Assembly (NCBI GenBank): GCA_018716225.1
Contig: DVKE01000042.1
Span: 1 to 60,101, forward strand
Direction: 5' to 3'
Length of the DNA: 60,101 nt
Origin: Candidatus Onthousia faecigallinarum
GTDB taxonomy: Bacteria > Bacillota_I > Bacilli_A > RF39 > UBA660
How positions within the stretch are numbered: position 1 is the stretch's first letter; the number at the start of each line of letters is the position of its first letter. Positions 27,564-53,691 of the stretch are shown piece after piece. A program made the translations under genes and the position numbers. The notes under the pieces were generated by a model. That model made no database searches. It worked only from the letters and a program-made list of their open reading frames with translations, and was not told where the DNA came from.

Positions 27564-29111
27564 GTGATTCTTGTGATATTGCGAAAACCTTATGCTTTCT
27601 TGATTAAGTATTTTCAAGTGATTCATTTGGTATTACTTGTACTTTGTTCTGTTTTGTTTTATCAGTCGATTACGTTACAGAATTTTGTTCGGGATTTTAT
27701 TAGTACGGAAAGTTATAATGCCTCTTTAGAATCTGTGCATCGTTATGTGAACTTTACTAGCTATGTTGCTTTCTTTCTTCTTTTTGCTATTCTTTTCGTT
27801 TTAATGATTTTGTTACGTTATAAAAAGAAGCCGTGGAAGATTTATCTATTTATCTTTTTTGCGTATATCTTTTTGTTTATTGTTTTCCTTTATATTGCTT
27901 CTTTCTTTGATCGCTACGATGTAACTTCTTCTATGACTACAATTATGGCAGGACGAGATTTGCTGTTCTTAGCGACATTACCTCAGTATTTGGTTTTTGT
28001 TGTTTTTGCGATTCGTTTGCTTGGTCTTGATTTAAAACAGTTTGGCTTTAAAAAAGACGAGGAATATCTTGATGTTAAAGAAGAAGATCGGGAAGAGTTT
28101 GAGGTAAATATTTCTTTTGATAAGGAAAGTATTGTTCGTAAAATAAAAAGCTTTTTTCGTCAAGTTAAATATGTTTATGTGGAACACCGCTTCCTTTGCA
28201 ATAGTTTAATCATTGCTTTGGTACTTGGTATTTCCCTTTATTGTGTTTATTATTTTGCCTATGTTTTAAAAGTATATCGGGAAGGGGATGCTTTTACAGC
28301 AAATTCTTATCAAATAGAAGTACAACATAGTTATTTGACGAATACGGATACCAATGGGGATCTCATTACTTCAGGAGATAGGGCTTATCTTGTGGTGGAT
28401 GTGTCGGTGAAAAATGTAGGAAGTGCTCGTACTTTAAATTTGGATCGCTTTCATTTGATGAATCGCAGTGAGGCTTTTTCACAGGTTACCAATCAATATG
28501 CTGCTTTTGCGGATTTAGGGAATAGTTATTCGGGTCGAAAATTAGAACATAATGATAGTGTTCGTTTCCTTTTGGTTTATCCTGTTTCTACTTCTTTGGA
28601 TGCAAAGCATTACATTTTATATTATCAAGATGTTGATAAAAATTTATCGATCAAAAAAATTCAATTAAATGTCGATGATGTTTTAGAAATAAAAAATAAA
28701 GAGGAATATTCTCTTTCCAATGAAGTTATTTTCCCGACAGGGGACAATTTAGCGATTCTTTCCGCTTCGATCGTTAACTCTGCTACTTATAGTACGTATC
28801 GTTGTGATGATGTGGGATGTTCAATTCGACAAGAGGTTATTTCGGTTCCTGATAGACAGATTTTAGAGTTAACTTACATTAGCGATAGTTTTGAAGGAAA
28901 GACTTTTGTTGACTTTTTACAAAGATATGCTAAAATGAAGTATAGGAATATAGAGAATAAAGAGGTTACTGTAGATATTACAAGTGCGGTGAAAAGAGAT
29001 TATTATGGAAATCGAGCATTTTTGACTTTACCAAATGATATAGCTTCCGATAGTTCTTTGGATCTTGTATTTGTGTTTCGGGATCAACAATATATCTATC
29101 ATTTACAGTAG
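27564..29111 (+). CDS. Polytopic membrane protein with a C-terminal extracytoplasmic beta-rich (DUF4352-like) domain
   Basis: About 5 N-terminal TM segments, then YLVVDVSVKNVGSARTLNLDRFHLMN, typical of DUF4352-type Ig-like domains. It is the first ORF of the island. Confidence 0.5.
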   Translation: MILVILRKPYAFLIKYFQVIHLVLLVLCSVLFYQSITLQNFVRDFISTESYNASLESVHRYVNFTSYVAFFLLFAILFVLMILLRYKKKPWKIYLFIFFAYIFLFIVFLYIASFFDRYDVTSSMTTIMAGRDLLFLATLPQYLVFVVFAIRLLGLDLKQFGFKKDEEYLDVKEEDREEFEVNISFDKESIVRKIKSFFRQVKYVYVEHRFLCNSLIIALVLGISLYCVYYFAYVLKVYREGDAFTANSYQIEVQHSYLTNTDTNGDLITSGDRAYLVVDVSVKNVGSARTLNLDRFHLMNRSEAFSQVTNQYAAFADLGNSYSGRKLEHNDSVRFLLVYPVSTSLDAKHYILYYQDVDKNLSIKKIQLNVDDVLEIKNKEEYSLSNEVIFPTGDNLAILSASIVNSATYSTYRCDDVGCSIRQEVISVPDRQILELTYISDSFEGKTFVDFLQRYAKMKYRNIENKEVTVDITSAVKRDYYGNRAFLTLPNDIASDSSLDLVFVFRDQQYIYHLQ

Positions 29112-29125
29112 AAAGGAAGGTAGCG

Positions 29126-30940
29126 ATGAATAAGAAAAAGATTATCACCATTATAATTCTTCTTCTTGTTTTGCTTCTAGCTTTTCTTCTTTTTTGGTTT
29201 TTCTATTTATCTCCTAGATTAACATTTCAAAAGCAAGAAGAAGAGTTTCGCAAAGCAGGGGAGCGATATTTCGAGATTAATGCGAATTTGTTGCCAAAAG
29301 AGGAAGGCAGGTATGCTGGTGTTTCTTTAGCGGTTTTGACAGAGCAGAAATATTTGGATCGGCAGTATGTTCCAAATAGCGATAAGTTATGTGATGTAGA
29401 TGCTTCTTTTTATCGAGTAATTTATCGGGATGGTGAATTGGTTCCTCATTATTATTTAAAGTGCGGATCTTATGAGTCGGATGTAGATCATGAAGGGCCA
29501 GAGATTACTTTAAATGGAGGCGATACGGTTCAGTTAAATTTAGGAGAAGCTTATCAAGAACAAGGAGTAAAAAGTGTTGTCGATGATACGGATGGACCGA
29601 TGAAGGTGGAGGATGTTTCGATTAAAGGTACGGTTGATAGTAATACGATTGGTGCTTATACCATTACCTATACGATTTATGATTCTTTTTTCAATAAAAC
29701 AGAAAAAGAAAGAACGGTTCAAGTCGTTGAAACATTAAATCATATTATGGATCAAGCTGGTATTACAACTTATCAGGGATTGGTTGAAAATAATTATGTT
29801 TCTTTTCAACATATGTTGTTCCGTATTGTTCGAAAAAATGAAGATGGGACCATTGTCCTGGTTAGTGATGATCCGATTGCTAATGTAGATTATTCTAGTA
29901 GCGATGGAAGATTTGAAGATAGTAGTTTGGATCATTATTTAAATGATTATTTTGCTTCGTTCTTTGAAAAGAAGTATGCAGATTTGCTTGTGGATCAAGC
30001 TTGGTGTGATGATGTTATTACGATGGATAATGTAATGACTACTGATTGTAGTCGCACTTCTTCGAAAAGAAAGGTAGGTATTTTATCGTTACAAGATTAT
30101 AATGCAAGCCTTTTGAATGGACAGAGTTATTTGGATATGAGGAATTTGTTCTGGATGGCCAATTTTGATGAAAATGGTAATCCTTGGACTTTATCTACTA
30201 TTTTTGCTTATCCCGATCGGGTAGAAGCGATGAATGGTTCACTATTAGTAAACGTACGACCTGCTATTGTATTGAAAAAAGATATTGCGGTTTTAGATGG
30301 TGATGGTAGTCAACTCGATCCTTATATTTTAGTTTCTGAAAAATCTGCGCATAGGAGTTCTCCTTTAAATGAAAGACATACAGGAGAATACCTTAATTAT
30401 TCGGGTTACTTATGGCGAATCATGGATACGGAAGATGATTTGACGGAAGCGATTATGGTACGAAGTCTTAGTGATGGAGCGAATGAGATTTCAATTTCTT
30501 ATCAGAATACTGGAGAAAAAGTTTATAATCCAAAAGAAGAAGGGAATATTGGTTATCAAATAAATTACAATATGACTAATTATATTGATACGAGTTATTT
30601 GGTTCGGCATGAGATCGAAGTTCCTATTTATCAAAATGCGGTGACTTATTTAGGAAATCATTCTACGGAAACTTATGAAGTATTATTAAGTGCACCTTCT
30701 ACGTTTGATTTGTTTAGTGCGAAAGGCAACATTGGACCAAATGGAGGTTATTGGTTAATGGATTCTAGTCAAGCGACCAATAATAGAACGCTTGTCTTTC
30801 CGGTTGGCAATACGCCTCTTGGAGCGGTAGTAGATGATTATACTTCTGCTGGAGTAAAAGTGAAAGTGAAATTTAATAAGAAAGTTTATATTCGTGGTGG
30901 TAGTGGAACAAGCAATGATCCTTATACCTTAGCACAGTAA
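29126..30940 (+). CDS. Membrane-anchored surface protein (pilin-like N-domain, DUF5011-type Ig domain, two DUF6273-like repeats)
   Basis: N-terminal TM. GPEITLNGGDTVQLNLGEAYQEQGV...GAYTITYTIYD is the Ig-like domain. The repeats end in DPYIL and DPYTL. Paralog of 52400-53665. Confidence 0.55.
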   Translation: MNKKKIITIIILLLVLLLAFLLFWFFYLSPRLTFQKQEEEFRKAGERYFEINANLLPKEEGRYAGVSLAVLTEQKYLDRQYVPNSDKLCDVDASFYRVIYRDGELVPHYYLKCGSYESDVDHEGPEITLNGGDTVQLNLGEAYQEQGVKSVVDDTDGPMKVEDVSIKGTVDSNTIGAYTITYTIYDSFFNKTEKERTVQVVETLNHIMDQAGITTYQGLVENNYVSFQHMLFRIVRKNEDGTIVLVSDDPIANVDYSSSDGRFEDSSLDHYLNDYFASFFEKKYADLLVDQAWCDDVITMDNVMTTDCSRTSSKRKVGILSLQDYNASLLNGQSYLDMRNLFWMANFDENGNPWTLSTIFAYPDRVEAMNGSLLVNVRPAIVLKKDIAVLDGDGSQLDPYILVSEKSAHRSSPLNERHTGEYLNYSGYLWRIMDTEDDLTEAIMVRSLSDGANEISISYQNTGEKVYNPKEEGNIGYQINYNMTNYIDTSYLVRHEIEVPIYQNAVTYLGNHSTETYEVLLSAPSTFDLFSAKGNIGPNGGYWLMDSSQATNNRTLVFPVGNTPLGAVVDDYTSAGVKVKVKFNKKVYIRGGSGTSNDPYTLAQ

Positions 30941-30953
30941 AGGAAGTGGTTTT

Positions 30954-31736
30954 ATGAAAAAGAAATATTTGTTTTTCCTTTTGGCTCTTGTTATTGTAGT
31001 CCTCCTTCTTATCTTTTTCCTTTTCTTCTTTGAGAGAAAAAGGACTAGCGATTTTAAGATTGTTTCAGAAGCGGAAAAAGTAGAGGAAGCGAAGCGTTAT
31101 GGTGATACAGTAGTCGGTTGGCTTCGGGTGGAAGGTACTAATATTGATTTACCTTTAATTGAAAATCTTGAAGGGACCAATATTTTGAGAGATGATTATG
31201 ATTTTGCTTGGACGAATTCTTTCCCTGATTCCAAAAGTAATCGTCCAGCCTTTATTTCTCATAATATTCGCAATGTATCGAAAAATCCAGTGGTTGGAGA
31301 TGATACCATGTTTCGTTTTGAACAATTGATGTCCTTTATTTATCCTGATTTTATTAAGGACAATCAATTTATTGAGTATACCAATCAAGATGGAGAGACA
31401 GCTTTGTATCGAATTTATGCGGTGAGTCTTTTAGAAGATAATCAAGAGGCTTCTTATAGTGATACTTATACGAAAGAAGAACAGGAAGAGTATATTAAAA
31501 AAGCCAAAGAAGAGAGTATGTATGATATGGATGTTGATGTAAATTCAGGCGATTTACTACTTACTTTATTTACTTGTACAAGATTTTATGGCTTTACGAA
31601 TGATTATTCTTTCCGGGTGGATGCTAGGAAGTTACGAAAAGGGGAACGAACAACTTTGGCTGAGGTAAAGACTAATGATAACTATAAAGTAATAAAAGAT
31701 AGGATGGAAGAAGGTGAAGAAGATGAACCAGTTTAA
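30954..31736 (+). CDS. Class B sortase-like transpeptidase
   Basis: N-terminal TM, then VVGWLRVEGTNIDLPLIE, a His region FISHNIRN, GDDTMF, the catalytic TLFTC motif (LLLTLFTCT) and a downstream Arg (RVDARKL). It aligns by eye along S. aureus SrtB. Confidence 0.75.
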   Translation: MKKKYLFFLLALVIVVLLLIFFLFFFERKRTSDFKIVSEAEKVEEAKRYGDTVVGWLRVEGTNIDLPLIENLEGTNILRDDYDFAWTNSFPDSKSNRPAFISHNIRNVSKNPVVGDDTMFRFEQLMSFIYPDFIKDNQFIEYTNQDGETALYRIYAVSLLEDNQEASYSDTYTKEEQEEYIKKAKEESMYDMDVDVNSGDLLLTLFTCTRFYGFTNDYSFRVDARKLRKGERTTLAEVKTNDNYKVIKDRMEEGEEDEPV

Positions 31737-34367: not shown

Positions 34368-34829
34368 ATGAGTAAAGCAACATTATTAATTGGAGTTTTG
34401 ATCCTTGCTCTTTTTACCTTTGGAGTTGTCAATTTGGTTCAAAACTATCAGACAGGAAATGAGTTAGATTACTATTTATTAAAAGAAACAACCGAAGCAG
34501 CGATGACAGATGCCGTTGATATTGGTTACTATCGTTTGTCTGGACTTCTTAGAATTGACAAAGAAAAATTTGTGGAAAGTTTCATGAGACGCTTTGCACA
34601 AAACGTAGCGAATAATCGGTATTATCGCATTGGTTTCTATGATATTAACGAAACACCTCCTAAAGTTAGTGTGAAGGTAGATTCGGCTACGGCCGCTTCC
34701 TTCAACAATGAGACTTTTGAAATTAGCAATCAAATTGATGCTGTTTTGGAAAGTAAATATAAAGAAAACCCATATATAAAAGATATGATTCGAGCAGGGA
34801 AGCTTGATTATACACAAATAGAAGATTAA
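34368..34829 (+). CDS. TadE/pseudopilin-like protein (N-terminal TM helix + small globular domain)
   Basis: MSKATLLIGVLILALFTFGVVNLVQNYQTG..., 153 aa, positioned directly before the CpaB-like gene. Confidence 0.4.
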   Translation: MSKATLLIGVLILALFTFGVVNLVQNYQTGNELDYYLLKETTEAAMTDAVDIGYYRLSGLLRIDKEKFVESFMRRFAQNVANNRYYRIGFYDINETPPKVSVKVDSATAASFNNETFEISNQIDAVLESKYKENPYIKDMIRAGKLDYTQIED

Positions 34830-34842: not shown

Positions 34843-35664
34843 ATGAATAATTTTTCGACAGGATTAAAAAAGTTTTTCTCAAACAAAAACACGGTTACTG
34901 TCATAGGTATTTTACTTGCCATTGTTATTCTTTATATTGGATATAATTGGCGCGTAAATCAAGCGATTAATCCAATCACGGTACCTTATGCTACTACAAC
35001 CATTACGGCAGGAACGCAAATTACAGAGGATATGATTGGTACAATGGAAGTCCCTCCTTCGATGTTAGAGGGAGATGTGATAAGAGATCGAGCTGATGTT
35101 GTTGATATGTATGTTAGTATTGATGGAGTGATTCCAGAGGGTAGTTTATTCTATTCACGTTCGGTTGTTACGAAAGAACAACTTCCAAATTCCATTATTA
35201 TGGATTATCCTGATGGCTACGTATTATATAACTTAGATGTTGATATGGCTTCTACTTATAGTAACTCAATTGTTCCAGGTAAGTATATTGACATTTATTT
35301 AAAAGTAATGAATCGGGTTGATACAACCCAAGGAACAGCGATTACCGATCGTATCATGGTTGGAAAGCTTTTGGCGAATGTAAAAGTGTTAGCAGTTTTC
35401 GATAGTGATGGAAACGATGTTTTTGCTAATCTTGATGAAAATAGAGCGCCAGCTCAAATTATCTTTGCGGTTCCAGAAGAATATCATATTTTGCTTCGGA
35501 AAGCGAGTTATTTAAGAGCTTATGAATCAGAAATTATTCCTGTACCAACTGCGGAAGGTTTAAAAGAGGATCCAGGAGATGTAACTTTATCAAGTGAAGA
35601 CTTAAAGAACTTTATTAATAATGTAACGGCAATGACAGAAGAAGATATTAATGCTAATCAATAA
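34843..35664 (+). CDS. CpaB/RcpC-like Flp pilus assembly protein (SAF domain)
   Basis: N-terminal TM, then the SAF-like VPYATTTITAGTQITEDMIGTMEVP and the typical CpaB C-terminal beta domain. Confidence 0.65.
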   Translation: MNNFSTGLKKFFSNKNTVTVIGILLAIVILYIGYNWRVNQAINPITVPYATTTITAGTQITEDMIGTMEVPPSMLEGDVIRDRADVVDMYVSIDGVIPEGSLFYSRSVVTKEQLPNSIIMDYPDGYVLYNLDVDMASTYSNSIVPGKYIDIYLKVMNRVDTTQGTAITDRIMVGKLLANVKVLAVFDSDGNDVFANLDENRAPAQIIFAVPEEYHILLRKASYLRAYESEIIPVPTAEGLKEDPGDVTLSSEDLKNFINNVTAMTEEDINANQ

Positions 35665-35691: not shown

Positions 35692-36894
35692 ATGAATGAT
35701 GCGATTTTTGATAAGATAGACTTTGGTCCTTTTCAACCTTTTCTGACTAATGATGATATTACCGATATTTCTTATTGTAATCATGGACAGGTTTGGATTC
35801 GATCTCTAACCGATGGTTCTAAAAGAGTAGAGGTAGAGGGACTTACGGATAGCTTTGTAGAAAAGTTGGCTTTTCAATGTTCTAATGTTATGGGAACAAC
35901 CTTTAATGCAGCGAAGCCTTTTTTAGATGCAGAGTCTGTAGAGTTACGTCTTAACTTTGTTCATGATTCCATTGCTACGAATGGAATTGCACTTGTTATT
36001 CGTAAAACACCTGCTAAGATTCGTTTGAGTCGGGAGAAATTATTGGCAGAAGATTATTTTACTGCTAACATTCACGATATTTTAATGAAATGTGTCGAGG
36101 GACATTGCAATATCATTGTTAGTGGAGAAACTGGTTCTGGTAAAACGGAGTTTGTTAAGTATTTGGCTAGTCATACTAAAGAAGATGAAAAAATTATTAC
36201 TATAGAGGACACTTTGGAATTGCATTTGGATCGAATCTTTCCTCATCGTGATATTGTCGCGATGAAGACCAATAATATTGCAAGTTATACGGATGTTTTG
36301 GTTACTTGTATGCGGCAGAATCCAAAGTGGATTTTGCTTTCCGAAGTGCGTAGTGCTGAAGCAGTTACAGCGGTAAGAAACTCTATTTCTTCTGGACATA
36401 ACATTTTATCAACCATTCATGCTGACAAAGCTAGTTCCATTCCTTATCGTATGTATTCCTTATTAGAGTCTGATATTGATGTCGATCAATTTTTAACCAC
36501 TATTTATCGTTATATTCAATTAGGTGTTCATATTAAAGCTTATTACAGTAAGGAATATGGTAAATTTCATCGTGAAGTTGATGAGGTCGTTGAATTCTAT
36601 GTTGATGAGAACAATAAACCACAAACAAGGGTTCTTTATCAAAAAACTTTTGGAAAAGCTCCTGTTCAAAATATGCCAAGTAAGTATTTAATTGAATATT
36701 TAAGTAATCAAAACATTAATATCGAACAGTTATTTACCGATAAAGATTCCATGGGGAATATTGATCAAGAATTAGATAATTTAGCTTTGAGGGAGAAGGA
36801 AGGAACCAAAGAGGTGAAGGAAGAGAGAAAAGAGGCAGAGGATTCTCTTGACTTTTCTTTTCCTGATATTCCGAATGTTGATGAAACCCTATAG
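35692..36894 (+). CDS. CpaF/TadA-type (VirB11-superfamily) secretion ATPase
   Basis: Walker A SGETGSGKTEF, Asp box IITIEDTLEL, Walker B ILLSEVRSAEA, His box STIHA. Confidence 0.85.
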   Translation: MNDAIFDKIDFGPFQPFLTNDDITDISYCNHGQVWIRSLTDGSKRVEVEGLTDSFVEKLAFQCSNVMGTTFNAAKPFLDAESVELRLNFVHDSIATNGIALVIRKTPAKIRLSREKLLAEDYFTANIHDILMKCVEGHCNIIVSGETGSGKTEFVKYLASHTKEDEKIITIEDTLELHLDRIFPHRDIVAMKTNNIASYTDVLVTCMRQNPKWILLSEVRSAEAVTAVRNSISSGHNILSTIHADKASSIPYRMYSLLESDIDVDQFLTTIYRYIQLGVHIKAYYSKEYGKFHREVDEVVEFYVDENNKPQTRVLYQKTFGKAPVQNMPSKYLIEYLSNQNINIEQLFTDKDSMGNIDQELDNLALREKEGTKEVKEERKEAEDSLDFSFPDIPNVDETL

Positions 36895-37803: not shown

Positions 37804-37804
37804 G

Positions 37805-40378: not shown

Positions 40379-40381
40379 TAA

Positions 40382-40410
40382 TTGACAAAGATTTTAATTT
40401 TTTGTATGAT
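40382..40410 (+). promoter_or_regulatory. Putative promoter, copy 1 of a repeated promoter motif
   Basis: TTGACA (40382-40387), 17 nt, TATGAT (40405-40410), followed by AGATGTAGT, which is shared with copy 3. Confidence 0.55.
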
Positions 40411-40436
40411 AGATGTAGTAAAGGAGATTTTTGTTT

Positions 40437-45177: not shown

Positions 45178-46964
45178 GTATAAGTTTTAAAAGTCAGATA
45201 GCTCCAAAGGGTCTTAGTTTTTCTCCTTCTAGTTTCTTTATTAGTGATAAATATGCTACTATATTGACGGTTGTTTCTTATCCCAAATATATTGCACCAG
45301 GATATTTATCAACTCTTACTTCGATGAGTGGAATAAAAATTGTCATTAAACATATTCCCGTACCTTTTAGTACGATGTCTAAAATGATCAATCGTCAAAT
45401 TGCTGATTTGCGGGAGAGATATCGGCAAGAAAAAGATCAAACGATGAAAGAGAGAATTCGGCAAGATGCTGAGAGTTTGGAATATTTCATTTCTATGCTT
45501 GCATCAAGTCAATCAAAAATATTCGATTTTCAAATGCACATTGTTATTTATTCCGATACGAAGGAAGACTTAGAATTAAAGAAAGTTAATGTAAAAAACT
45601 ATTTGGATGCGATGGAACTTCGGGCAATTTCTCTTCGTTTTGAACAAGAAAAAGTATTCAAAAGTATTTTACCTATTTTTCCAAAACAAGATATTGAAGA
45701 GAGAATTGGTACTCCAATTCCATCTCCAACGATTGCCGCGATGTATCCTTTTATCTTTGATAGTATTAAAGATCCAGGTCTTTCGGTATTGCTTGGAGTG
45801 GATTTTTCAGGAGGAGTTATTTTATTTAATCAGTTCTTATATCAAATTCGAAAAGAAAATAACCGTAATAATGCGAATATGATTATTCTTGGTACTTCTG
45901 GATCTGGTAAAAGTACGGCTGCAAAATTACTTTTGAGAAGTCATATTCGAAATGGTTGTCAGATCATAGCAGTTGATCCAGAAAATGAACTAGAGGAGAT
46001 TACTCATGCTTTTGGGGGAGATACGATCGATATTGGTAAAGGTGGAGAGTTTGGTTTAATTAATCCGTTGGAAGTTGTTGTCGATGCGGATGAGGATGAG
46101 ATCAAACAAGGGCTTGGTTATACGGTATTAACGCGTACTTTACAGTCTTTAAAAGCTTTTATGAGATATTATGACCCATCGATTGAAGAAGATGTACTAA
46201 ATATGTTTAGTGAAGTGGTTCAAGATACTTATAAGCGTTTTGGGATCGATTTTAATACTGATTTTTCAAAGTTTACAAGTCAAGATTATCCTATTTTTTC
46301 AGATGTCTATGCGACGATTAAAGGTAGACTTATGTCCATGACAGAACAGACCCAGGAGCGTGATATTATGCAACGACTTGAGTTGAAAGTACGTCCTTTA
46401 ATTAAAGAGCTAAAGTTCTATTTTGATGGAAAGACAACGATACAAGCTGATAGTGATTTTATGGTATTTAATATTAAAGAGTTAATGAACTCGGATAGTA
46501 ATATTCGAAATGCTTTGTTCTTTAATGTTTTAAAATATGCTTGGGGTCTTTGTTTGGATGTTGATGTTAATACCATTTTAATGGTAGATGAAGCGCATGT
46601 ATTATTGGGATCAAATAATGTTATGGGAGCAGATTTCTTGGCTCAAGTACAACGTCGAGCTCGAAAATATAATACAGGAACTATTATTATTACTCAACAG
46701 CCAAGTGATTTCTCGGATCCCGCTGTTATTACCCAAGGAAAAGCTATTTTTGATAACTCTTCTTATTATATGGTTATGGGATTAAGAAAACAAGCGGTTG
46801 AAGATTTGTCTCAATTAATCGATTTGAATGATAATGAAAAAGATAGTATTAAACGGTATTCTCAAGGGGAAGCATTGTTTGTTTGTGGAAACCGAAGAAT
46901 GCGTATTAATGTTGTTGTAACAAAAGAAGAACTTGAATCTTTCGGTAGTGGAGGAGGATTCTAG
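45174..46964 (+). CDS. VirB4-family T4SS ATPase (C-terminal 596 aa)
   Basis: Walker A ILGTSGSGKSTAAK, Walker B ILMVDEAHVLL, and the upstream motif ILTVVSYPKYIAPGYLSTL typical of VirB4. Confidence 0.85.
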   Translation: MSISFKSQIAPKGLSFSPSSFFISDKYATILTVVSYPKYIAPGYLSTLTSMSGIKIVIKHIPVPFSTMSKMINRQIADLRERYRQEKDQTMKERIRQDAESLEYFISMLASSQSKIFDFQMHIVIYSDTKEDLELKKVNVKNYLDAMELRAISLRFEQEKVFKSILPIFPKQDIEERIGTPIPSPTIAAMYPFIFDSIKDPGLSVLLGVDFSGGVILFNQFLYQIRKENNRNNANMIILGTSGSGKSTAAKLLLRSHIRNGCQIIAVDPENELEEITHAFGGDTIDIGKGGEFGLINPLEVVVDADEDEIKQGLGYTVLTRTLQSLKAFMRYYDPSIEEDVLNMFSEVVQDTYKRFGIDFNTDFSKFTSQDYPIFSDVYATIKGRLMSMTEQTQERDIMQRLELKVRPLIKELKFYFDGKTTIQADSDFMVFNIKELMNSDSNIRNALFFNVLKYAWGLCLDVDVNTILMVDEAHVLLGSNNVMGADFLAQVQRRARKYNTGTIIITQQPSDFSDPAVITQGKAIFDNSSYYMVMGLRKQAVEDLSQLIDLNDNEKDSIKRYSQGEALFVCGNRRMRINVVVTKEELESFGSGGGF

Positions 46965-46995: not shown

Positions 46996-49308
46996 ATGAA
47001 TGGACAAGGGCAAAATAGGGGGAATAACAATTTTAATAATGGAAGACAAAATATTCCTAATGCAAATGGCAATGTTGTTCCTTCGCAAAGTGTTCCGCAG
47101 TCTCAAGTTTCTTCTGTGCCACAAAGAAAAGATCAAGGTCCTCAGACAAGTAGTCATGTAGGATCTTTTACGGATAGTTTAAAAAAAAGTCGTTCTCCTT
47201 TTTCTTCTAGTGATGGTGGAAATCAAATGAGTCGATCGGGAGCTTTACGTGCTGGAGATCCGTTGGCTAAGGCTGGACTTTCTCGATCGGGAAATAAAGA
47301 AGATGGACAGATGCTTCGTAATATTCGCCAAAAAAATGCAATGCAGCAGACGCCAAGAGGGGCTAGGAATCAAAATCAAGGAGATAACAATACTGAGGAA
47401 GAAACAAATAAGAGTGAAAGAGCGCATCCTCGAATTGGAGACGGTTTTCCTAAGCCCAATTTGCTTGGCTCAGAACCTGAGGAAGAAGAAAGTGATGGAG
47501 AAGGCGAGGAAGAAAGTAGTGGCTTCGCTGGTGGAATTTTTTCTAGACGGAGAAGAAGAGATGGATTTAACCTTATAGGTAGGGCCTTTGGCAAAATCTC
47601 TTTGCCTGTTAAAATTGGAATTGTCGTAGCAGCTTGTCTTGTCGTGGTTGTCGCTACTATAGCAGCTTTAATTCCTACGGTTTTTTCAAATAGTCATGGT
47701 GTTTCACAAACCGCTACCAATCTTTTAACTTCGGATGAAGAAGTTACTTTTTCGAGTGCTGAGGAAGAATCTTTTTATACTCGACTTCAACAAGTTTCTA
47801 GTGAATATAGTGGGGATAATCGAGTTTTAGTTGGACAAGCGATCGCTGCTGTTTTTACAATTACTTCAGCGGATCAGGCGACGGATTATGATTATGAAGA
47901 TATGACCGAAGAAGTTATGCGTAATATTGCTTCGATGATGTTTCCTGATGGAAGTACTACTTATGATGAAGCATATTTTCAACAGCAACTTGCTAGTAAT
48001 TTTTTCCCTAATGTTATGCCGGGGGAAAGTGAAGAGTATTATCAACAGTTAGCAGAAGAAGTTACGACCTATTTGACTGATTATCGAGATATGATTACTG
48101 ATGATGATGCTTCTGTAGCAGTTTCTACTGGTGGAAGTTGTACTTATAATGTGGGAGGTCTTGCTTTATCCAATGTGAAGGTTCGACTTATGCAATCTGG
48201 TGTTGTGGTTGGTCATGATTTAGGTGGAACTTATGGAGAGCCGATTGCTGGAGAAGAGCTTGTTGACTTTGAAAAGTATGTTTTAGGAGTTGCCTATGCG
48301 GAAATTGGTCCCGTTAGTAATGAACAAGCTTTTAAGTCTCAATTATTGATGGCTCGATCTTTTGCCCTTGCACGTTTTGGTCCCGATGCTTATCAAGAAA
48401 ATGGGGCTTGGATTTTAGAGATTCCCAATAGTGTAGCGGCTCAAGTATATTGTGATCCGGATCAAGGTTGTAGTAAAGATGTTCCAGCGAACAATCAATG
48501 GGGTATGGTTTATAGTGGAGCGAATTCTCATGCTTATACTTACAAAGATGCTATGGCACAAGATGATATTCATCGTACTTGGGCTGATGAAGTAGCTGGT
48601 CAGGTTATTGTGGATGATAGTGGAAATGTCGTACTTGCTACTTATGGATCTTCTACTAATGTGGAAGGGCTTGCTAATTCGTTAGGGGATTATGTTGATG
48701 TATTAGTACATATTTATGGAAGTATTACGATTGAGAGTATGAACTGTACTTCTTCTAGCAATGCAACTTATGCAAGCTGGAAACAAAATGATCCTACTTG
48801 GTCAGGAATTGTTCTAGGAGGAGGAAGCGATAGCACGCGCTCTTTAGGTAATATAGGTTGTCTTGCTACTAGTATTTCAATGTTAATTATGAAGAGTGGG
48901 GCTTTAAATATGACTCCTACGCCAACCTTAGTAAATTCTAGTAACTTTAATCCCGGAACTTTTGTTCAAGCGATGAATCAAGTTGGGGGTTTTGATTCTG
49001 GTGGTAATTTAATATGGAGTGCTGTTAATCAAGTTGTTCCTGCTTTTCGAGTAGGTTCTGATGTTCGTTTAAGTGGTCTTAGTCAACAAGAAAAATTAGA
49101 AACGATACGTAATTATGCTGGTGTTAGTGGAAATTATTGTACTATTGAAGTAAAAGGAGCAACTCAAGGCGCACAACACTGGGTAGCGATTGATAATGTA
49201 ACGGGAAATAGCATTACGATGATGGATCCTGCTAGTGAAAGCACGGATGCATGGGCTACTTATAACTGGTATGATACTTCAAGAATTGTTTGCTTTACCA
49301 CAAATTAA
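46996..49308 (+). CDS. Bifunctional cell-wall hydrolase (VirB1 functional analogue): disordered N-region, TM, SpoIID-like domain, C-terminal papain-like cysteine peptidase domain
   Basis: YVLGVAYAEIGPVSNEQAFKSQLLMARSFALARF is SpoIID/LytB-like. NDPTWSG...LGNIGCLATSISMLIM...QHWVAID is a Cys/His peptidase (C39-like/CHAP-like). Confidence 0.65.
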   Translation: MNGQGQNRGNNNFNNGRQNIPNANGNVVPSQSVPQSQVSSVPQRKDQGPQTSSHVGSFTDSLKKSRSPFSSSDGGNQMSRSGALRAGDPLAKAGLSRSGNKEDGQMLRNIRQKNAMQQTPRGARNQNQGDNNTEEETNKSERAHPRIGDGFPKPNLLGSEPEEEESDGEGEEESSGFAGGIFSRRRRRDGFNLIGRAFGKISLPVKIGIVVAACLVVVVATIAALIPTVFSNSHGVSQTATNLLTSDEEVTFSSAEEESFYTRLQQVSSEYSGDNRVLVGQAIAAVFTITSADQATDYDYEDMTEEVMRNIASMMFPDGSTTYDEAYFQQQLASNFFPNVMPGESEEYYQQLAEEVTTYLTDYRDMITDDDASVAVSTGGSCTYNVGGLALSNVKVRLMQSGVVVGHDLGGTYGEPIAGEELVDFEKYVLGVAYAEIGPVSNEQAFKSQLLMARSFALARFGPDAYQENGAWILEIPNSVAAQVYCDPDQGCSKDVPANNQWGMVYSGANSHAYTYKDAMAQDDIHRTWADEVAGQVIVDDSGNVVLATYGSSTNVEGLANSLGDYVDVLVHIYGSITIESMNCTSSSNATYASWKQNDPTWSGIVLGGGSDSTRSLGNIGCLATSISMLIMKSGALNMTPTPTLVNSSNFNPGTFVQAMNQVGGFDSGGNLIWSAVNQVVPAFRVGSDVRLSGLSQQEKLETIRNYAGVSGNYCTIEVKGATQGAQHWVAIDNVTGNSITMMDPASESTDAWATYNWYDTSRIVCFTTN

Positions 49309-49319: not shown

Positions 49320-50114
49320 ATGGATAGAAGAAAAAAACTTTATATAACTATATTTGTATTGTTAGGTATTTATTTTGTCGTTATGTTTATTTTTGTGATT
49401 TATCCTGCTATGAAAGATGGAAAAAGAGAAACTTATGTCATTGTGAATAATGATGCAAAATGGAAATACGAAGATCGTAAATGGCAGGATATTTCCATAG
49501 GAGAGAAAAAACTTTATAATTGGCAAAAATTTGATATTTATCAAAATCAAAAAGAACTTGGCAACTATTTTCTTCTTGATAGTAATGGTTGGCATATCTA
49601 TGATGATGAGCGCAATCCAGTAAAAAAAGATGGGGTTTCTTTGTTTGCAATTCGTAGTAATCAAGATTATGAGTTTGCTTTTTATGATACTGTAGATGTA
49701 GATCAAGAAAATATTGGTTATGTAGAAGAGGTTTTAAATGAACATAATATTACGACTCGTGATTTTACGGTTTGTGAGATGTTCTCGTATGATTTGGATC
49801 AAGATGGAGAAGAGGAAAAAGTATTTACGGTATCTAATATGTTTATTACCGAATATACCACAGTACCAAGAAATATTTTTAACTTTATTTTTGTCGTAGA
49901 TAGTGGTAAAATAATACCAGTTTTAGAAGAAGTGGATACTTATGACAAGATGTATCATCATTGTAGTGCTTCGGTTGCTTATGTTGTTGATCTCGATGGC
50001 AATGGTACTTTTGAATTAATTACGAGTTGTAGTTATTATAGTAATCAAGGTACTTGTATCGAACTATATGAGAAGGTGCATGGGAAGTATGAGAAAGTAA
50101 AATCTTGTGAATAA
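49320..50114 (+). CDS. Membrane-anchored protein of unknown function with DxDxDG-type motifs
   Basis: N-terminal TM, then YDLDQDGEEEKVF and VVDLDGNGTFELI (FG-GAP/calcium-binding-like). It occupies the slot where monoderm T4SS loci often encode VirB8-like proteins. Confidence 0.45.
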   Translation: MDRRKKLYITIFVLLGIYFVVMFIFVIYPAMKDGKRETYVIVNNDAKWKYEDRKWQDISIGEKKLYNWQKFDIYQNQKELGNYFLLDSNGWHIYDDERNPVKKDGVSLFAIRSNQDYEFAFYDTVDVDQENIGYVEEVLNEHNITTRDFTVCEMFSYDLDQDGEEEKVFTVSNMFITEYTTVPRNIFNFIFVVDSGKIIPVLEEVDTYDKMYHHCSASVAYVVDLDGNGTFELITSCSYYSNQGTCIELYEKVHGKYEKVKSCE

Positions 50115-50157: not shown

Positions 50158-52302
50158 ATGAAATTAAAATTTAGAGCAGATAAAGAAGATATCATGATAT
50201 TTGTAGTTTTTGCTATTTTTCTTTTATATGTTGTAGCGATTGCGGTGGTTAATTTACATAGTTTTGCTACAACAGGGAGTTTGAGCGGTTTAAATCCGTT
50301 TCCTGCTTTTGCACCTGATTTTATTGGTTTTACTTTAGTCATTTATTTAGGATCTTTGTTTGGTTTATTTGTTAGTGTGAAATCCTACTTTTTTGAAATG
50401 GAAAAGGGATTTGGCATTACAACGGAAAAAAAAGACAAAGGGTATTCTCGATGGGCAAAAGATAAAGAAATAAAAGCGGAACTTAAAATGGTCCCAATTC
50501 AAGCGCCTACCGCAGAGGCTGGGGGAATTCCTTTAATTTTAAATGAGCATGAAGCATGGGTTGATGATGGAGAATATCATACGATTGTTATTGGTGCGAC
50601 TGGTTCTGGTAAAACACAAACCGTCATTAAACCAACGGCTAAGTTACTGGCTAAAAATGGGGAATCGATGATTATTACCGATCCGAAAGGTGAAATTTAT
50701 GAAAGCACGGCGAATATGTTGCGGGCGAAAGGTTATAATGTTTTGGTTTTGAACTTCCGTAATCCGCAAAAGGGAAGTGGTTGGAATCCTTTATCTCTTC
50801 CTTATCACATGTATAAAGAAGGAAATCAAGATAAGGCGATTGAGTTACTCGATGATTTGGCGTTAAACATTTTATACGATTCTTCGAATGCGAATGCCGA
50901 TCCTTTCTGGGAGAAGACTTCTGCTGACTATTTTTCTGGAGTCGTGTTAGGTTTATTTGAAGATGCCAAAGAAGATGAGATTAACCTTAATAGTGTTAGT
51001 TTAGTAACAACGGTTGGCGAAGAAAAATTTGGTGGTTCTACTTATATCAAAGAATATTTTGATGCGAAAGATCCAGCGAGTGCGGCGGCGATTAATGCTT
51101 CGGGTACCATTTCGGCTCCGACGGAAACCAAGGGTTCTATCTTATCTGTTTTCCGGCAAAAGATAAAACTATTTTCTTCTCGTGATAATTTATCCGAAAT
51201 GTTAAGTCATAGTGATGTGGACCTTGCTGATATTGGACGAAGAAAGACAGCATTATTTATTGTTATTCAAGATGAAAAAACAACCTATCATCCTTTGGTT
51301 ACGATTTTGTTGAAACAATGTTATGAGACCTTAATTGATGTAGCCCAAGATAATGGAGGAGCTCTTCCCGTTCGAACGAATTTTTTGTTGGATGAGTTTG
51401 CGAATATGCCGAAGTTAAAAGATATGACAACGATGATTACGGCAGCGCGTAGTCGTCATATGCGTTTTACGATGATTATTCAAAACTATGCTCAATTGAA
51501 TCAAGTGTATGGTAAAGAAGAGGCTGAGACTATCCGTGGTAACTGTGGTAATATTATTTACTTAATTTCTGCAGAATTAGCTGCTTTGGAAGAAATTTCT
51601 AAAATGTGTGGAGAAGTGAAAAGTAAAAAAGATGATAAAACTGCTAGTACCCCTTTGGTTACGGTTTCTGATTTGCAACGTATGAAAGAAAATGATTGTA
51701 TTATTTTACGATTACGGCAACAACCATTTAAAACGAAACGAACTCCAGATTGGAAAATAGATTGGGGAGAAGAGTATCCAAAAGCAGAATTTGTAGAACG
51801 TGAAAAACGGGAAGTTCATACTTTTGATATTAAAACCTTTGTCAAAGAGCAGAAGAAAAAGAAGTTAATTGAAATGATGAATTCTGCTCCTGAGGTGGAT
51901 AAAAATCCTTCGGTGCCAAGTGGTTTTGGATCTTTTCCTGGTATGTCAAATCCAACGCCATTTACGCCACCTAATTTATTCCAGAATTCACCTATGAATC
52001 CGGTGGGTAGAGAGGAAAAACCAAGGATGAATCCAGCGTTAGAGCCAAAAAAACAACAACCAACGCCATCTCCATCTTTCGATGTGGATGAGTTAGTAAA
52101 GAAAATTGATGCGAAAATTGCTGAATTAGAAGCGGAAGAAGCAAGAGAGAAAGCGGAAGAGGAAAAAAGAAAGAAAGAAGAGAAGAAAGAGCCACCTTTT
52201 GCTGTCTCTTCTATTCCAACGGTAGAACAAAAATCATCTCCTTCTTTGACTTTGGATGATGATGACGATGATGATTTCTTCGATGATTTTTTTGATGAAT
52301 AG
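50158..52302 (+). CDS. VirD4/TraG-type type IV coupling protein with a Pro-rich linker and poly-Asp/Phe C-terminal tail
   Basis: Two N-terminal TMs, Walker A IGATGSGKTQT, Walker B FLLDEFANMP, and the tail LTLDDDDDDDFFDDFFDE. Confidence 0.85.
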   Translation: MKLKFRADKEDIMIFVVFAIFLLYVVAIAVVNLHSFATTGSLSGLNPFPAFAPDFIGFTLVIYLGSLFGLFVSVKSYFFEMEKGFGITTEKKDKGYSRWAKDKEIKAELKMVPIQAPTAEAGGIPLILNEHEAWVDDGEYHTIVIGATGSGKTQTVIKPTAKLLAKNGESMIITDPKGEIYESTANMLRAKGYNVLVLNFRNPQKGSGWNPLSLPYHMYKEGNQDKAIELLDDLALNILYDSSNANADPFWEKTSADYFSGVVLGLFEDAKEDEINLNSVSLVTTVGEEKFGGSTYIKEYFDAKDPASAAAINASGTISAPTETKGSILSVFRQKIKLFSSRDNLSEMLSHSDVDLADIGRRKTALFIVIQDEKTTYHPLVTILLKQCYETLIDVAQDNGGALPVRTNFLLDEFANMPKLKDMTTMITAARSRHMRFTMIIQNYAQLNQVYGKEEAETIRGNCGNIIYLISAELAALEEISKMCGEVKSKKDDKTASTPLVTVSDLQRMKENDCIILRLRQQPFKTKRTPDWKIDWGEEYPKAEFVEREKREVHTFDIKTFVKEQKKKKLIEMMNSAPEVDKNPSVPSGFGSFPGMSNPTPFTPPNLFQNSPMNPVGREEKPRMNPALEPKKQQPTPSPSFDVDELVKKIDAKIAELEAEEAREKAEEEKRKKEEKKEPPFAVSSIPTVEQKSSPSLTLDDDDDDDFFDDFFDE

Positions 52303-52399: not shown

Positions 52400-53665
52400 A
52401 TGAATGAAGAAAAAGATAAGGCGGTAGAGCCTAAAAAGGAAGAAACAACGAATACAACCAATGTAAATCAGGCTCAAGTAGAAAATAAGGGGAAGGCTAT
52501 TCTTTCTTCTAGTTTTCGTAATGCTTTCAAAAGTAGTTCTTCTAGCTCTTCTAGTCATTCCTTGCGAAAGAAGTTATTTCTCTTGGCTGGGGTGATCGTA
52601 GGAGTGGTTGTCATTTTATTAATTGTAATGGCCATTCTAAGTTCTCTTCGAGGGAAAAATCTTAGTTATGATGAGTTGGAAACTCAATTAAAAAATGCAG
52701 CCATAAAATTTTATCAAGTGCAGGATTCTCTTCTTCCCCAACAAGATGGAGAGACTTCGGAAGTGGATGCTGATACCTTAGCAAGTGATGAATATAAGTT
52801 TATGAAACCTTTGAGTGAGTTACATCCTGGAGAAGAGTGTACGGGACGTGTGGTAGTAGAAAAAGTAGGCGAGGAATATGTCTATACCCCTTATCTTACT
52901 TGTGGTGAGAATTATTCTTCCAGAGAGCTTTATCAAGCGGTATTAGAAACGGGCATTGATTCCAAAGGGAATGGTCTTTATGAAATGAATGGAGAGCATG
53001 TATTCCGGGGCGAATATGTCAATAATTATGTTCAGTTAGATCAAGCGGTTTATCGTATTGTTAAAGTAATGAATGATAATAAAATGTTATTGATTTTAGG
53101 GGGTACCGATACAAGTACATTCTCGGTTGATTGGGATAACCGTTATAACTCAGAGCGTAGATATGATAGTGGTATCAATAATTATCGATTGAGTCGAATG
53201 GCAGATTATTTGAAAACATTATATCAGACAGGATATGAAGATAATATCATTTTAAGTGATAATGATAAAGAAAAATTAGTACCATTTAATCTTTGTCTTG
53301 GAAAAAGAGGAGAAGCGGATACAGACAATACCAATACCATTGAATGTAGTGATGTGTTAGCAGATCAGATGATTGGCTTATTGACGGTAAGTGATTATAT
53401 TAATGCTTCTTTGGATAGTAATTGTCAAAAGTCTGGTGATCAAGCTTGTAAGAATTATAATTACTTGGTTACTGATAAAGCTTGGTGGTTAATTACGGCT
53501 TCCTCTCTTAATACGTCAGAAGTATTTTTTGTCAATCAATCTGGTTATGTAGATTCTTCGATCGCTAGTAATTATCGACGCATGAGACCAGTTGTTATGT
53601 TGAATAGTAGTGTCATGGTACGTTCGGGAACTGGTACAATCAGTGATCCTTATATTTTAAAATAG
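52400..53665 (+). CDS. Membrane-anchored surface protein, paralog of 29126-30940
   Basis: Shares NNYVQLDQAVYRIVKV / NNYVSFQHMLFRIVRK, IGLLTVSDYINASL / VGILSLQDYNASLL, and RPVVMLNSS...GTGTISDPYILK / RPAIVLKKD...GDGSQLDPYILV. Confidence 0.55.
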   Translation: MNEEKDKAVEPKKEETTNTTNVNQAQVENKGKAILSSSFRNAFKSSSSSSSSHSLRKKLFLLAGVIVGVVVILLIVMAILSSLRGKNLSYDELETQLKNAAIKFYQVQDSLLPQQDGETSEVDADTLASDEYKFMKPLSELHPGEECTGRVVVEKVGEEYVYTPYLTCGENYSSRELYQAVLETGIDSKGNGLYEMNGEHVFRGEYVNNYVQLDQAVYRIVKVMNDNKMLLILGGTDTSTFSVDWDNRYNSERRYDSGINNYRLSRMADYLKTLYQTGYEDNIILSDNDKEKLVPFNLCLGKRGEADTDNTNTIECSDVLADQMIGLLTVSDYINASLDSNCQKSGDQACKNYNYLVTDKAWWLITASSLNTSEVFFVNQSGYVDSSIASNYRRMRPVVMLNSSVMVRSGTGTISDPYILK

Positions 53666-53691
53666 AACTAGGGTATAGTTCTTTTTTTTTG
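53664..53691 (+). terminator. Rho-independent terminator closing the island
   Basis: GAACTA/TAGTTC stem with a 5-nt loop, followed by T9. Confidence 0.65.

Follow-up and report, generated by a model that had tools for sequence, protein, structure and literature searches.

A chromosomal type IV secretion locus with a Tad-like module is conserved across uncultured gut Bacilli

The stretch of DNA analyzed here, 60,101 nucleotides from Candidatus Onthousia faecigallinarum (referred to as the window), carries a block of 22 genes in which a tight adherence (Tad)-like module directly precedes a type IV secretion system (T4SS) of the monoderm type. It is very probable that this block is a chromosomally fixed T4SS of the kind found on the plasmid pLS20, combined with a Tad-like module. 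With less assurance, though still on balance, we favor the view that it acts as a contact-dependent translocator of substrates that come from elsewhere. An earlier note, made from the letters of the window alone, had taken the combination for an undescribed kind of system, which cannot be upheld since a homologous cassette is already present inside the conjugation operons of pLS20, pXO2/pAW63, pZB18, pLIS32, and a Paraclostridium plasmid. Such a joined Tad and T4SS unit has a known architecture, and its Tad nature seems to have gone unrecognized in searchable papers. What is new here is the chromosomal fixation and vertical inheritance of the locus, its freedom from relaxase, integrase, and replication genes, and its fuller Tad set, with CpaB and a TadZ-like protein.

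The window is part of a low-GC Firmicute chromosome (33% GC). Translations and Pfam labels identify era, recO, glyQS, infC, rpsB, tsf, and typA on the left of the block and spoVAC/AD/AE and scpA/B on the right. The block itself (27564-53665; Table 1) is bordered on the left by a thioredoxin-like lipoprotein gene and a tRNA-Ser and on the right by spoVAC, and its 22 plus-strand open reading frames (ORFs; orf1 to orf22) are joined by junctions of -20 to +97 bp. A check of the ORFs together with Pfam and NCBIfam searches confirmed the 22 co-oriented genes of the earlier note and most of its gene calls, as well as its central observation of a Tad-type module and a monoderm T4SS in a single, tightly packed, same-strand unit. 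Its statement that the block is free of relaxase, integrase, and prepilin peptidase also stands, as none of the 22 proteins matched such a family in Pfam or NCBIfam, where there were likewise no matches to the Flp and peptidase A24 families. Cognate relaxase or oriT-processing genes were absent from the 22 proteins, and the flanks consist of housekeeping genes. The block had been said to end in a clean terminator. A hairpin and a T-run do exist and are likely to form an intrinsic terminator, but the hairpin has just 2 G-C pairs, and the scanner rule calls for at least 3. The strongest sigma-70-like match within the block lies in the gap between orf12 and orf13 (40379-40436) and is a possible internal promoter of the T4SS half. 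In one strain of the same species, this gap holds an insertion sequence (IS) with a 608-aa DDE transposase (L005, 14815-16641).

The T4SS half (orf13 to orf21) has, in one operon, the gene set of the pLS20- and pXO2/pAW63-type T4SS, namely, VirB4, a CD1115-type VirD4, VirB6-like and VirB3-like proteins, and a wall hydrolase. The VirD4, VirB6/TrbL, and PrgI/VirB3-like calls of the earlier note were corroborated by NF045973, TrbL_4, and NF045975 alignments, respectively. The match of orf16 to PrgI is weak, and its hidden Markov model (HMM) finds the plasmid family DUF5592 at 2e-4, while orf15 also matches two families of Mycoplasma integrative and conjugative elements (ICEs) (MMCAP2_0566, 3e-9; Mbov_0396, 5e-7). 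VirB4 was correctly recognized in the note but is not the single ORF at 44629-46964 that it described. The region holds two ORFs (44629-45177 and 45174-46964), which are in different frames with an ATGA overlap, and orf16, orf17, and orf18 tile the 894 aa of NF045975 at residues 2-96, 103-277, and 294-893. Since 48 of 48 related loci, as well as a sister clade, have the same split, it is genuine, and a frameshift error was rejected. The two proposed VirB2/TrbC-like modules had no direct family support, orf13 reaching only 12 bits against PF18895, but they are supported through an orthologue of orf13 on a sister-clade contig (L177), which scores 135 bits with the lineage HMM and 35 bits against PF18895. 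Because this is above the Pfam gathering threshold (GA) of 26.6, we assign orf13 as a VirB2-type pilin. The C terminus of orf14 matches orf13 by BLASTP (2e-14; 43% over 61 aa). In the hydrolase orf19, the SpoIID domain was found as claimed, and the cysteine-peptidase part was assigned by motif in the window protein; an orthologue in L179 has both SpoIID and CHAP. No family match was found for orf20 in the family library searches, and a VirB8-type channel role is possible, as a speculative assignment. Toward its end (52140-52302), VirD4 has an extended Lys/Glu-rich segment and then a highly acidic tail, DDDDDDDFFDDFFDE, which may be a docking motif.

On sequence grounds, the Tad reading of the left half (orf5 to orf12) holds, with indirect assignments for the platform proteins and for TadZ. 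A published study ties DUF5411, the family of orf5, to clostridial operons with CpaF and PilC/GspF (PMC9523054), and this link provided the route to Tad-like reference loci for orf5 to orf11. The only plasmid match to orf5 was on a Virgibacillus halodenitrificans megaplasmid (NZ_CP033050), at a locus with DUF5411, RcpC/CpaB, a MinD/ParA-like gene, an ATPase, T2SSF, a second membrane protein, two 74-aa genes, and DUF4320, with a class F sortase further on. Our lineage profiles match these genes collinearly: orf5 finds DUF5411 (1.1e-10), orf6 finds RcpC/CpaB as annotated by the Prokaryotic Genome Annotation Pipeline (2.4e-24, 77 bits), orf7 finds the ATPase (5e-41), orf8 aligns over its full length to the T2SSF protein (2e-5, 15 bits), orf9 finds the second platform gene (1e-11), orf10 has the two 74-aa genes as its top matches (E value of 0.016), and orf11 finds DUF4320 (3.6e-6). 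The Virgibacillus counterpart of orf8 passes the Pfam T2SSF model (35.2 bits; GA of 25.2). The CpaB-like assignment of the earlier note is upheld by the lineage profile despite direct Pfam and NCBIfam scores under their cutoffs, and the single match of orf6 in a PDB profile search was RcpC (9gzr) of a Pseudomonas Tad system, at an E value of 0.28.

Other labels of the left half stood only in part. The CpaF/TadA ATPase orf7 does belong to the secretion ATPase superfamily (Pfam T2SSE, 3.3e-28, 98.8 bits; GA of 24.9), while its subfamily scores are split, with NCBIfam matches that are all under the cutoff to VirB11 (116.6 bits, 1e-33), the TadA-like TIGR03819 (110.6 bits, 9e-32), and FlaI (94.2 bits, 8e-27) and with PDB profile matches to FlaI (5e-20), CpaF (8e-17), and VirB11 (6e-16). 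The TadB and TadC labels of orf8 and orf9 have no direct Pfam or NCBIfam support but are supported via the intermediate Virgibacillus homologues. Pfam did not recognize either protein as T2SSF, as single proteins or with 29 orthologues each and at E values of up to 10, nor did NCBIfam and PDB profile searches; orf8 had no direct match of any kind in these three, hhalign found no match between orf8 and orf9, and the AlphaFold2 model of orf9 was too poor (predicted local distance difference test [pLDDT] score of 50.7), with Foldseek results that were noise. The N terminus of the pilin-sized orf10 (MKEATG-ELNMTV) is invariant in the alignment of the lineage, and its top Pfam match is weak (archaeal Pilin_N, E value of 0.12). 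The proteins orf10 and orf11 start alike before their hydrophobic helix (MKEATG and MRDAIG), a motif that looks like a processing site, differing from the Flp and type IV pilin consensus. For orf12, the TadZ label fits the fold class, without direct family support: the protein had no match in family and profile searches, its AlphaFold2 model (pLDDT score of 72) has Foldseek matches to HypB, UreG, MeaB, FtsY, and IcmF, and its profile reaches the Virgibacillus MinD/ParA-like gene at an E value of 0.08. The modeled architecture may be called TadZ-like, with no specific TadZ match, and the gene always follows the ATPase module.

A search of 72,556 plasmids connected this cassette to Gram-positive conjugation. 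The best plasmid matches of orf7 (1e-30 to 1e-40) were ATPases annotated as "CpaF/VirB11 family" on conjugative plasmids of Gram-positive bacteria, among them pLS20-type plasmids of Bacillus subtilis, pXO2, pXO1, pAW63-like plasmids, Listeria pLIS32, Enterococcus faecium pZB18, and a Paraclostridium plasmid. VirB11 proteins of Gram-negative plasmids reached 1e-10 to 1e-17, and the Gram-negative matches labeled "ATPase, T2SS/T4P/T4SS family" were ordinary VirB11 loci. With the orf7 profile, the plasmid ATPases were found at 1e-50. The plasmid operons run from an adhesin, an ~125-aa protein with an N-terminal transmembrane (TM) helix, the ATPase, and membrane proteins of ~270 and ~245 aa through an ~120-aa N-terminal-TM protein, duplicated ~47-aa proteins, a VirB2-like protein, and the CD1115 VirD4 to a VirB6-like protein, DUF5592 (VirB3-like), an ~190-aa ORF, VirB4, and a hydrolase, with a MobP relaxase further on, and the ATPase cassette has an identical order across five plasmid families. 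Profiles pair in both directions for p36 and orf5 (9e-4 from the pLS20 side and 0.085 in the opposite direction), p38 and orf8 (3.9e-5 and 3e-3), p39 and orf9 (9e-6 and 3.5e-5 for the orf9 profile; reciprocal, 7e-6), and p40 and orf11 (3e-4 and 7e-3), and the p38 and p39 profiles also tie to the Virgibacillus T2SSF pair. We therefore read orf5 as a putative minor-pilin-like part of Firmicute Tad-like loci and as the counterpart of p36. The pLS20-type plasmids also have tandem or repeated ~47- to 50-aa genes that start with MLDQN(A/T)DR followed by a hydrophobic helix (L171, 20153-20466; L169, 18196-18599; L170, 14020-14172); in size and layout, these are like Flp-like pilin genes, and the literature lists them as unknown.

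Published accounts describe these genes differently. pLS20 and pAW63 are established conjugative plasmids whose ATPase is named VirB11 and whose neighboring genes are unknown, and plasmids of the pLS20 family are said to encode no pilus components (PMC8557374, PMC1196294). For pLM80, there is an automated label, "Flp pilus assembly ATPase" (PMC9484302). A 2025 review of T4SSs mentions neither pLS20 nor Tad. In an incomplete literature search, which gives absence of evidence only, we found no paper that treats the pLS20-type cassette as Tad-like and none on this locus in uncultured Bacilli.

By comparison among relatives, the locus is vertically inherited, strongly constrained, and chromosomally fixed. 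Scanning a single genome from each species gave 86 relatives. The 80 that we retained are all uncultured gut or rumen metagenome-assembled genomes, labeled Bacilli, "Tenericutes," Candidatus Onthousia, Clostridium sp. CAG:451, or CAG:417; one relative is a closed chromosome of 1.52 Mb, and genomes of the lineage are ~1.5 to 1.6 Mb. The genes orf1 to orf18 are collinear in the 80 species representatives as far as each contig reaches, and orf5 to orf22 are collinear in long metagenome loci (in a scan anchored on VirB4), so that all 22 genes keep their order in about 150 loci, which come from uncultured gut Bacilli of at least 80 species. An identical orf7 protein is encoded in 238 blocks of the metagenome collection, and all 8 places that we read had it at the typA/trx site. 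Across loci, the identity is 66 to 91% for orf7, 76 to 92% for the VirB4 body (orf18), 55 to 87% for VirB4-N (orf17), 55 to 93% for orf8 and orf9, and 56 to 82% for VirD4 (orf21), and it is 21 to 72% for the surface-exposed orf1, orf2, orf4, orf15, orf19, and orf22. TypA is 85 to 89% identical in the same close genomes, and the conservation of VirB4 matches that of this translation factor where both can be compared. The GC content of the block (0.351) is like that of its housekeeping flanks (0.325 and 0.354), compared to 0.28 for a mobilizable element at the left end of the window, and no direct repeat of ≥11 bp is common to both borders of the block. The word "island" in the earlier note had implied a recent insertion, which this collinearity, conservation, flank-like composition, and absence of repeats at the borders contradict.

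The surroundings of the block vary between sub-lineages, the right flank being spoVA in close relatives and rhodanese/VTT/RmuC genes in others. Divergent copies have gained genes for wall hydrolases, glycosyl- and acyltransferases, and IS elements, and we saw acyltransferase_3, a family-2 glycosyltransferase, and an M23 peptidase plus a lysozyme inside the block (L058, 13251-15963; L159, 13400-14320; L164, 14886-16172). There was no relaxase among the extra genes of the divergent loci sampled, and none of the hallmarks of an ICE (an integrase at the border, attachment repeats, or a patchy distribution) was seen at the block. The tRNA-Ser was rejected as an attachment site, as the thioredoxin-like gene lies between it and the block and no repeat was found. 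The earlier note had proposed to compare related genomes for co-occurrence of the two halves, and within the clade of the window, each long related locus does have both. As a single unit, the combination therefore stands within this clade, but strict inseparability does not, since a sister clade has only the ATPase and orf12.

This sister clade has a short form of the locus. On three contigs (L177 to L179), whose ATPases are 38 to 47% identical to orf7, the thioredoxin-like gene on the minus strand is followed by the ATPase, an orf12-like gene, a T4SS_pilin gene (PF18895, above the GA), an orf22-like gene, TrbL, VirB3, VirB4-N, and VirB4-C, and L179 also has the hydrolase with SpoIID and CHAP. 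None of orf1 to orf6 or orf8 to orf11 is present at this site in the three contigs. The ATPases of L177 and L178 end in an ~240-aa Pro/Gln/Glu-rich tail. The ATPase-orf12 pair has a closer tie to the T4SS than the filament genes have, which keeps a plain VirB11 reading of orf7 alive.

Several of these observations weigh against the interpretation that we favor. The sister clade retains the T4SS with only the ATPase and orf12, indicating that the ATPase may serve the T4SS directly, like VirB11, and that the pilus parts may be dispensable. The proteins orf8 to orf12 were not recognized by direct family searches, the T2SSF link amounts to 15 bits to one intermediate protein, and TadZ was absent from the top 50 Foldseek matches of orf12. 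The alignment of orf10 does not contain the Flp-type G/XXXXEY motif, and there is no prepilin peptidase within the block. With 355 bits for the Mycoplasma ICE family and 127 bits (by our profile) for the VirB4 of pLS20, VirB4 is nearer to the former, so that the T4SS core and the ATPase cassette may differ in their nearest relatives. Finally, strong purifying selection is hard to explain if mobilizable elements alone benefit from the machine.

From the gene content, homologies, synteny, and conservation that we observed, we infer how a filament could form, which substrates could be moved, and in which direction. A hexamer of orf7 on the TadB/TadC-like platform of orf8 and orf9 would assemble a short filament or pseudopilus across the thick wall from the small pilin-like orf10 and, as minor subunits, orf5 and orf11, with orf6 as a CpaB/RcpC-type collar. 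The TadZ-like orf12, with its degenerate P-loop, may position or scaffold the ATPase. Peptidoglycan would be opened by the hydrolase orf19, and the translocon would consist of VirB4 (orf17 and orf18), the VirB3-like orf16, the VirB6-like orf15, and the VirB2-like orf13 and orf14, with substrates recruited by VirD4 (orf21). Contact with a partner could be made by the fast-evolving orf1, orf2, orf4, and orf22, together with the sortase orf3 and the thioredoxin-like lipoprotein. The lack of any relaxase, oriT-processing, replication, or integration gene in a locus under housekeeping-level constraint suggests that the substrates come from elsewhere. That they are DNA encoded elsewhere has, in our estimate, a slightly less than even chance. 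The most likely source would be mobilizable elements, such as the MobV element in the window, with their relaxase-DNA complexes, and chromosomal DNA could be a further substrate, as in mycoplasma chromosomal transfer. The suggestion of the earlier note that the locus is a helper for relaxase-only elements is accordingly still a live explanation. A more far-reaching proposal, which we put forward tentatively and consider less probable than not, is that the "VirB11 plus unknowns" of pLS20-type plasmids is a Tad-type filament module that builds a pilus or pseudopilus and that the combined machine has been domesticated in small-genome gut Bacilli as a core, possibly essential, relaxase-less organelle for cell-cell interaction or gene exchange.

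It is also conceivable that orf7 is the plain VirB11 of the T4SS and that its neighbors are channel subunits, with no Tad-like pilus at all. This would agree with VirB11 being the top NCBIfam match of orf7, with the naming in the pLS20 and pAW63 literature (PMC8557374, PMC1196294), with the failure of the Pfam T2SSF model to find orf8 and orf9, and with the short-form clade, where ATPase, orf12, and T4SS stand without platform or pilin genes at the site. We nonetheless regard it as unlikely, since a run of eight adjacent genes has homologues in the same order in a stand-alone RcpC/CpaB and T2SSF locus that is free of T4SS genes within 12 kb and since RcpC/CpaB is specific to Tad systems; in addition, the PDB profile scores slightly favor FlaI and CpaF over VirB11, and Gram-negative VirB11 scores 15 to 25 orders of magnitude below the Gram-positive cassette ATPases. 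A decaying ICE that has lost its relaxase and integrase, which the nearby tRNA gene, the absence of both genes, and the IS insertions in some strains and lineages might bring to mind, was rejected as extremely improbable on conservation, composition, and missing border repeats: all 22 ORFs are intact, here and likewise in about 150 loci, the motors are 76 to 92% identical across species and thus on par with TypA, the composition is that of the flanks, and trx separates the tRNA from the block.

Two further explanations concern what is transported. The absence of effector or toxin-immunity genes recognized in or beside the block, a VirD4 of the conjugative CD1115 family, and nearest characterized relatives that all move DNA speak against co-option for a non-DNA role, be it delivery of proteins or toxins to bacteria or host cells or an obligate cell-cell association modeled on the Patescibacteria T4SS, as do the mobilizable relaxase elements in the same window and sporulation genes (spoVA and yqfD-like) that do not suggest an obligate epibiont. 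By analogy, such a role would nevertheless fit a chromosomal, relaxase-less locus with housekeeping-level conservation in genomes of ~1.5 to 1.6 Mb, with fast-evolving surface proteins beside frozen motors, and it has a precedent in Patescibacteria, where a T4SS with VirB2-like pilins is essential (PMC12102498, PMC12857230); we place it on the unlikely side, short of dismissing it. Improbable by comparison is a competence machine in which a Tad-like filament captures DNA and a VirB4-type channel imports it. The missing relaxase, the presence of a pilus-type module with VirB4, and weak NCBIfam matches of VirB4 to CedD (1e-9) and of VirD4 to CedB (2e-4) would be in line with DNA uptake, for which Flp-dependent transformation of Micrococcus luteus, archaeal Ced, and Helicobacter pylori ComB are precedents (PMC4322843, PMC9905601). 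But the Ced matches are far weaker than those to conjugative families, ComB-type systems have no VirD4 whereas the locus has a conjugative-type coupling protein with 56 to 82% identity, and no ComEA- or ComEC-like gene was found in or near the block.

The thioredoxin-like lipoprotein gene adjoins the locus in 47 related loci, lies directly upstream of the ATPase in the three short-form contigs, and is the constant, divergent left neighbor even where the right flank differs. The protein orf4 is rich in Cys, and conserved Cys residues occur in both orf13 and orf16. This constant neighbor, together with the Cys residues in the three proteins, suggests a dedicated disulfide oxidoreductase, probably accessory to the Cys-containing secreted parts. 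The class B sortase of the earlier note was borne out as a sortase B-like protein with scores under the cutoff (TIGR03064 srtB, 1.2e-13) and the TLFTC motif in place. The block proteins showed no canonical sorting signal, and a sortase substrate inside the block was rejected, the sole LPxTG match being the cytoplasmic N-terminal LPVTG of VirB4-N. The surface proteins orf2 and orf22 are paralogous (BLASTP, 1.7e-11) and have in common the motif G(S/T)GT..DPY.L at their C-terminal ends. In distant lineages (L150 to L167), an orf22-like gene takes the place of orf14 between the pilin and TrbL. Neither orf1 (Pfam and NCBIfam) nor orf4 (Pfam) had a family match.

The only relaxase of the window (Mob_Pre) sits outside the block, in the separate element at the left end. 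The serine recombinase of the second element is 73% identical to the left one and is broken (57963-59051 and 59330-59908), and a 93-aa gene at 57443-57724 is 59% identical to a 128-aa gene of the left element (5531-5917). Both elements are without transfer machinery and would be natural clients for a host-encoded T4SS. At 6711-8792, the window has a gene for a 693-aa protein whose translation resembles a peptidase-C39/ABC bacteriocin-type exporter, followed by unannotated short ORFs.

Table 1. Coordinates of the locus and other features of the window
Feature	Positions	Strand	Description
Integrative mobilizable element	295-6600		GC 0.28; around tRNA-Gly (5946-6019); no transfer genes
Mob_Pre (MobV) relaxase	1400-2779	-	Left-end element; ~25 kb from block
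Large serine recombinase, 646 aa	3392-5329	-	Left-end element
Double helix-turn-helix regulator	6132-6596	-	Left-end element
Thioredoxin-like lipoprotein (Thioredoxin/PedC-like)	27065-27478	-	Pfam Thioredoxin 1.2e-7; divergent from orf1
orf1, variable surface protein	27564-29111	+	Polytopic N terminus and extracellular domain; orthologues in 71-72 loci, 30-66% identity
orf2, surface protein	29126-30940	+	N-terminal TM; Bact_surface_Ig-like 1.5e-16 (Pfam)
orf3, class B-like sortase	30954-31736	+	TLFTC catalytic motif; Pfam Sortase 24.7 bits (GA 26.6)
orf4, Cys-rich secreted protein, 877 aa	31723-34356	+	Most variable gene of the block; 23-67% identity across loci
orf5, DUF5411	34368-34829	+	N-terminal TM helix; Pfam DUF5411 8.6e-50
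orf6, RcpC/CpaB-like	34843-35664	+	N-terminal TM and beta-rich domain; Pfam RcpC 2.8e-5 and TIGR03177 4e-8, both under cutoffs
orf7, hexameric secretion ATPase	35692-36894	+	TadA/CpaF-FlaI-VirB11 group; Walker A GETGSGKT
orf8, polytopic membrane protein, TadB-like platform	36910-37803	+	Divergent T2SSF; pLS20 p38 counterpart
orf9, second platform-like membrane protein (TadC position)	37805-38584	+	pLS20 p39 counterpart
orf10, 68-aa pilin-sized protein	38675-38881	+	Invariant N terminus MKEATGELNMTV, then hydrophobic helix
orf11, DUF4320-like, pseudopilin-like	38907-39383	+	N-terminal helix; pLS20 p40 counterpart
orf12, cytoplasmic two-domain protein	39398-40378	+	Receiver/flavodoxin-like N-domain and SIMIBI-class P-loop fold; degenerate Walker A HAGSTT
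Sigma-70-like site TTGACA-17-TATGAT	40382-40410	+	orf12/orf13 gap; consensus match
orf13, VirB2-like T4SS pilin	40437-40829	+	Two-TM hairpin; conserved Cys residues
orf14, secreted domain and C-terminal copy of orf13 pilin hairpin	40916-42055	+	BLASTP
orf15, VirB6/TrbL-like polytopic channel protein	42142-44316	+	TrbL_4 38.7 bits (GA 27); long low-complexity tail
orf16, VirB3/PrgI-like small membrane protein	44334-44648	+	NF045975
orf17, VirB4 N-terminal (TraC-like) domain	44629-45177	+	NF045975, 5.9e-14; PF26593 TraC-like
orf18, VirB4 ATPase body	45174-46964	+	GTSGSGKST, MVDEAH; NF045975 4e-106; CD1110 family 1.6e-52
orf19, cell-wall hydrolase	46996-49308	+	SpoIID 1.1e-5; C-terminal Cys/His (CHAP-like) domain
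orf20, N-terminal TM protein	49320-50114	+	22-47% identity across loci
orf21, VirD4 coupling protein	50158-52302	+	T4SS-DNA_transf 2e-59; NF045973 conju_CD1115 317 bits (cutoff 250)
orf22, surface protein	52400-53665	+	DUF6273-like C terminus (weak); orf2 paralogue
Putative intrinsic terminator	53665-53691	+	A+T-rich hairpin AGAACTA-GGGTA-TAGTTCT, then T9
Second element	57257-59908		Next to tRNA-Leu

Pilus use in monoderm conjugation is an old question, and our findings give a sequence-based ground for a type IVc-like filament motor in a large family of Gram-positive conjugation systems, which includes those of pLS20, pXO2/pAW63, enterococcal plasmids for vancomycin resistance such as pZB18, and Listeria plasmids. 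If this is true, pLS20-type T4SSs of monoderms build a pilus or pseudopilus, against the usual pilus-less view, and pLS20 in B. subtilis is tractable for a direct test. A common uncultured gut lineage has a conserved chromosomal machine without DNA-processing genes, the same signature that led to the essential T4SS of Patescibacteria. The machine could underlie gene exchange, mobilization of resident relaxase-only elements, or dependence on a partner and, if so, would be to Bacillota what the T4SS is to Patescibacteria or chromosomal transfer is to mycoplasmas.

Type IV filament machines that act with a VirB4 and coupling-protein transfer system are known from the R64 thin pilus and PAPI-1 (also PMC12857230). 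Unlike the locus described here, these pili are of type IVb, belong to diderms, have their own prepilin peptidase, and are encoded on mobile elements with relaxases. The T4SS of Patescibacteria resembles the locus in its origin from monoderm MPF_FATA and in being chromosomal, lineage-wide, and mostly relaxase-less and is essential for epibiotic growth (PMC12102498, PMC12857230); VirB2-like pilins and small-genome hosts are further similarities. Patescibacteria are another phylum, likened to the lineage by features alone, and encode their type IV pili separately. The best curated-family match of the T4SS core is that of Mycoplasma ICEs, a VirB3-VirB4 fusion (Mbov_0397 family, NF045975), for which orf16 to orf18 score 355.6 bits against an equivalog cutoff of 590. 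What is one fusion protein in these elements is three ORFs in the window (VirB3, VirB4-N, and VirB4-C), and the elements are mobile, with a DDE recombinase and no hydrolase, unlike the locus. They support chromosomal transfer, and no VirB11 or Tad-like cassette is listed for them (PMC12857230).

In stand-alone Tad-like loci of Firmicutes, of which the DUF5411 operons of Roseburia, Ruminococcus, and Eubacterium are examples (PMC9523054), the order of DUF5411, RcpC/CpaB, ATPase, platform pair, small pilins, and DUF4320 is like that of orf5 to orf11, and a sortase is nearby. T4SS genes are absent from the 12 kb that we read to each side of these loci, their MinD/ParA-like gene precedes the ATPase whereas the one in the window follows the module, and the platform proteins of the window have diverged too far for the Pfam T2SSF model to find them. 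With the pLS20- and pXO2/pAW63-type plasmids, the locus has profile homology for orf5, orf7, orf8, orf9, orf11, orf16, orf18, and orf21, at 29 to 36% identity between the ATPases. The plasmids (pLS20, pXO2, pAW63, pBT9727, pZB18, pLIS32, and pLM80) are mobile and have a MobP relaxase, replication, and partition genes, while the locus is chromosomal, fixed in a lineage, and without any of them. In the window, VirD4 comes after the hydrolase, and in the plasmids it comes before VirB6; the hydrolase itself combines SpoIID with a CHAP-like domain in the window and a lytic transglycosylase with C40 in the plasmids. No gene of the plasmids corresponds to the RcpC/CpaB protein (orf6) or to the TadZ-like orf12 of the window.

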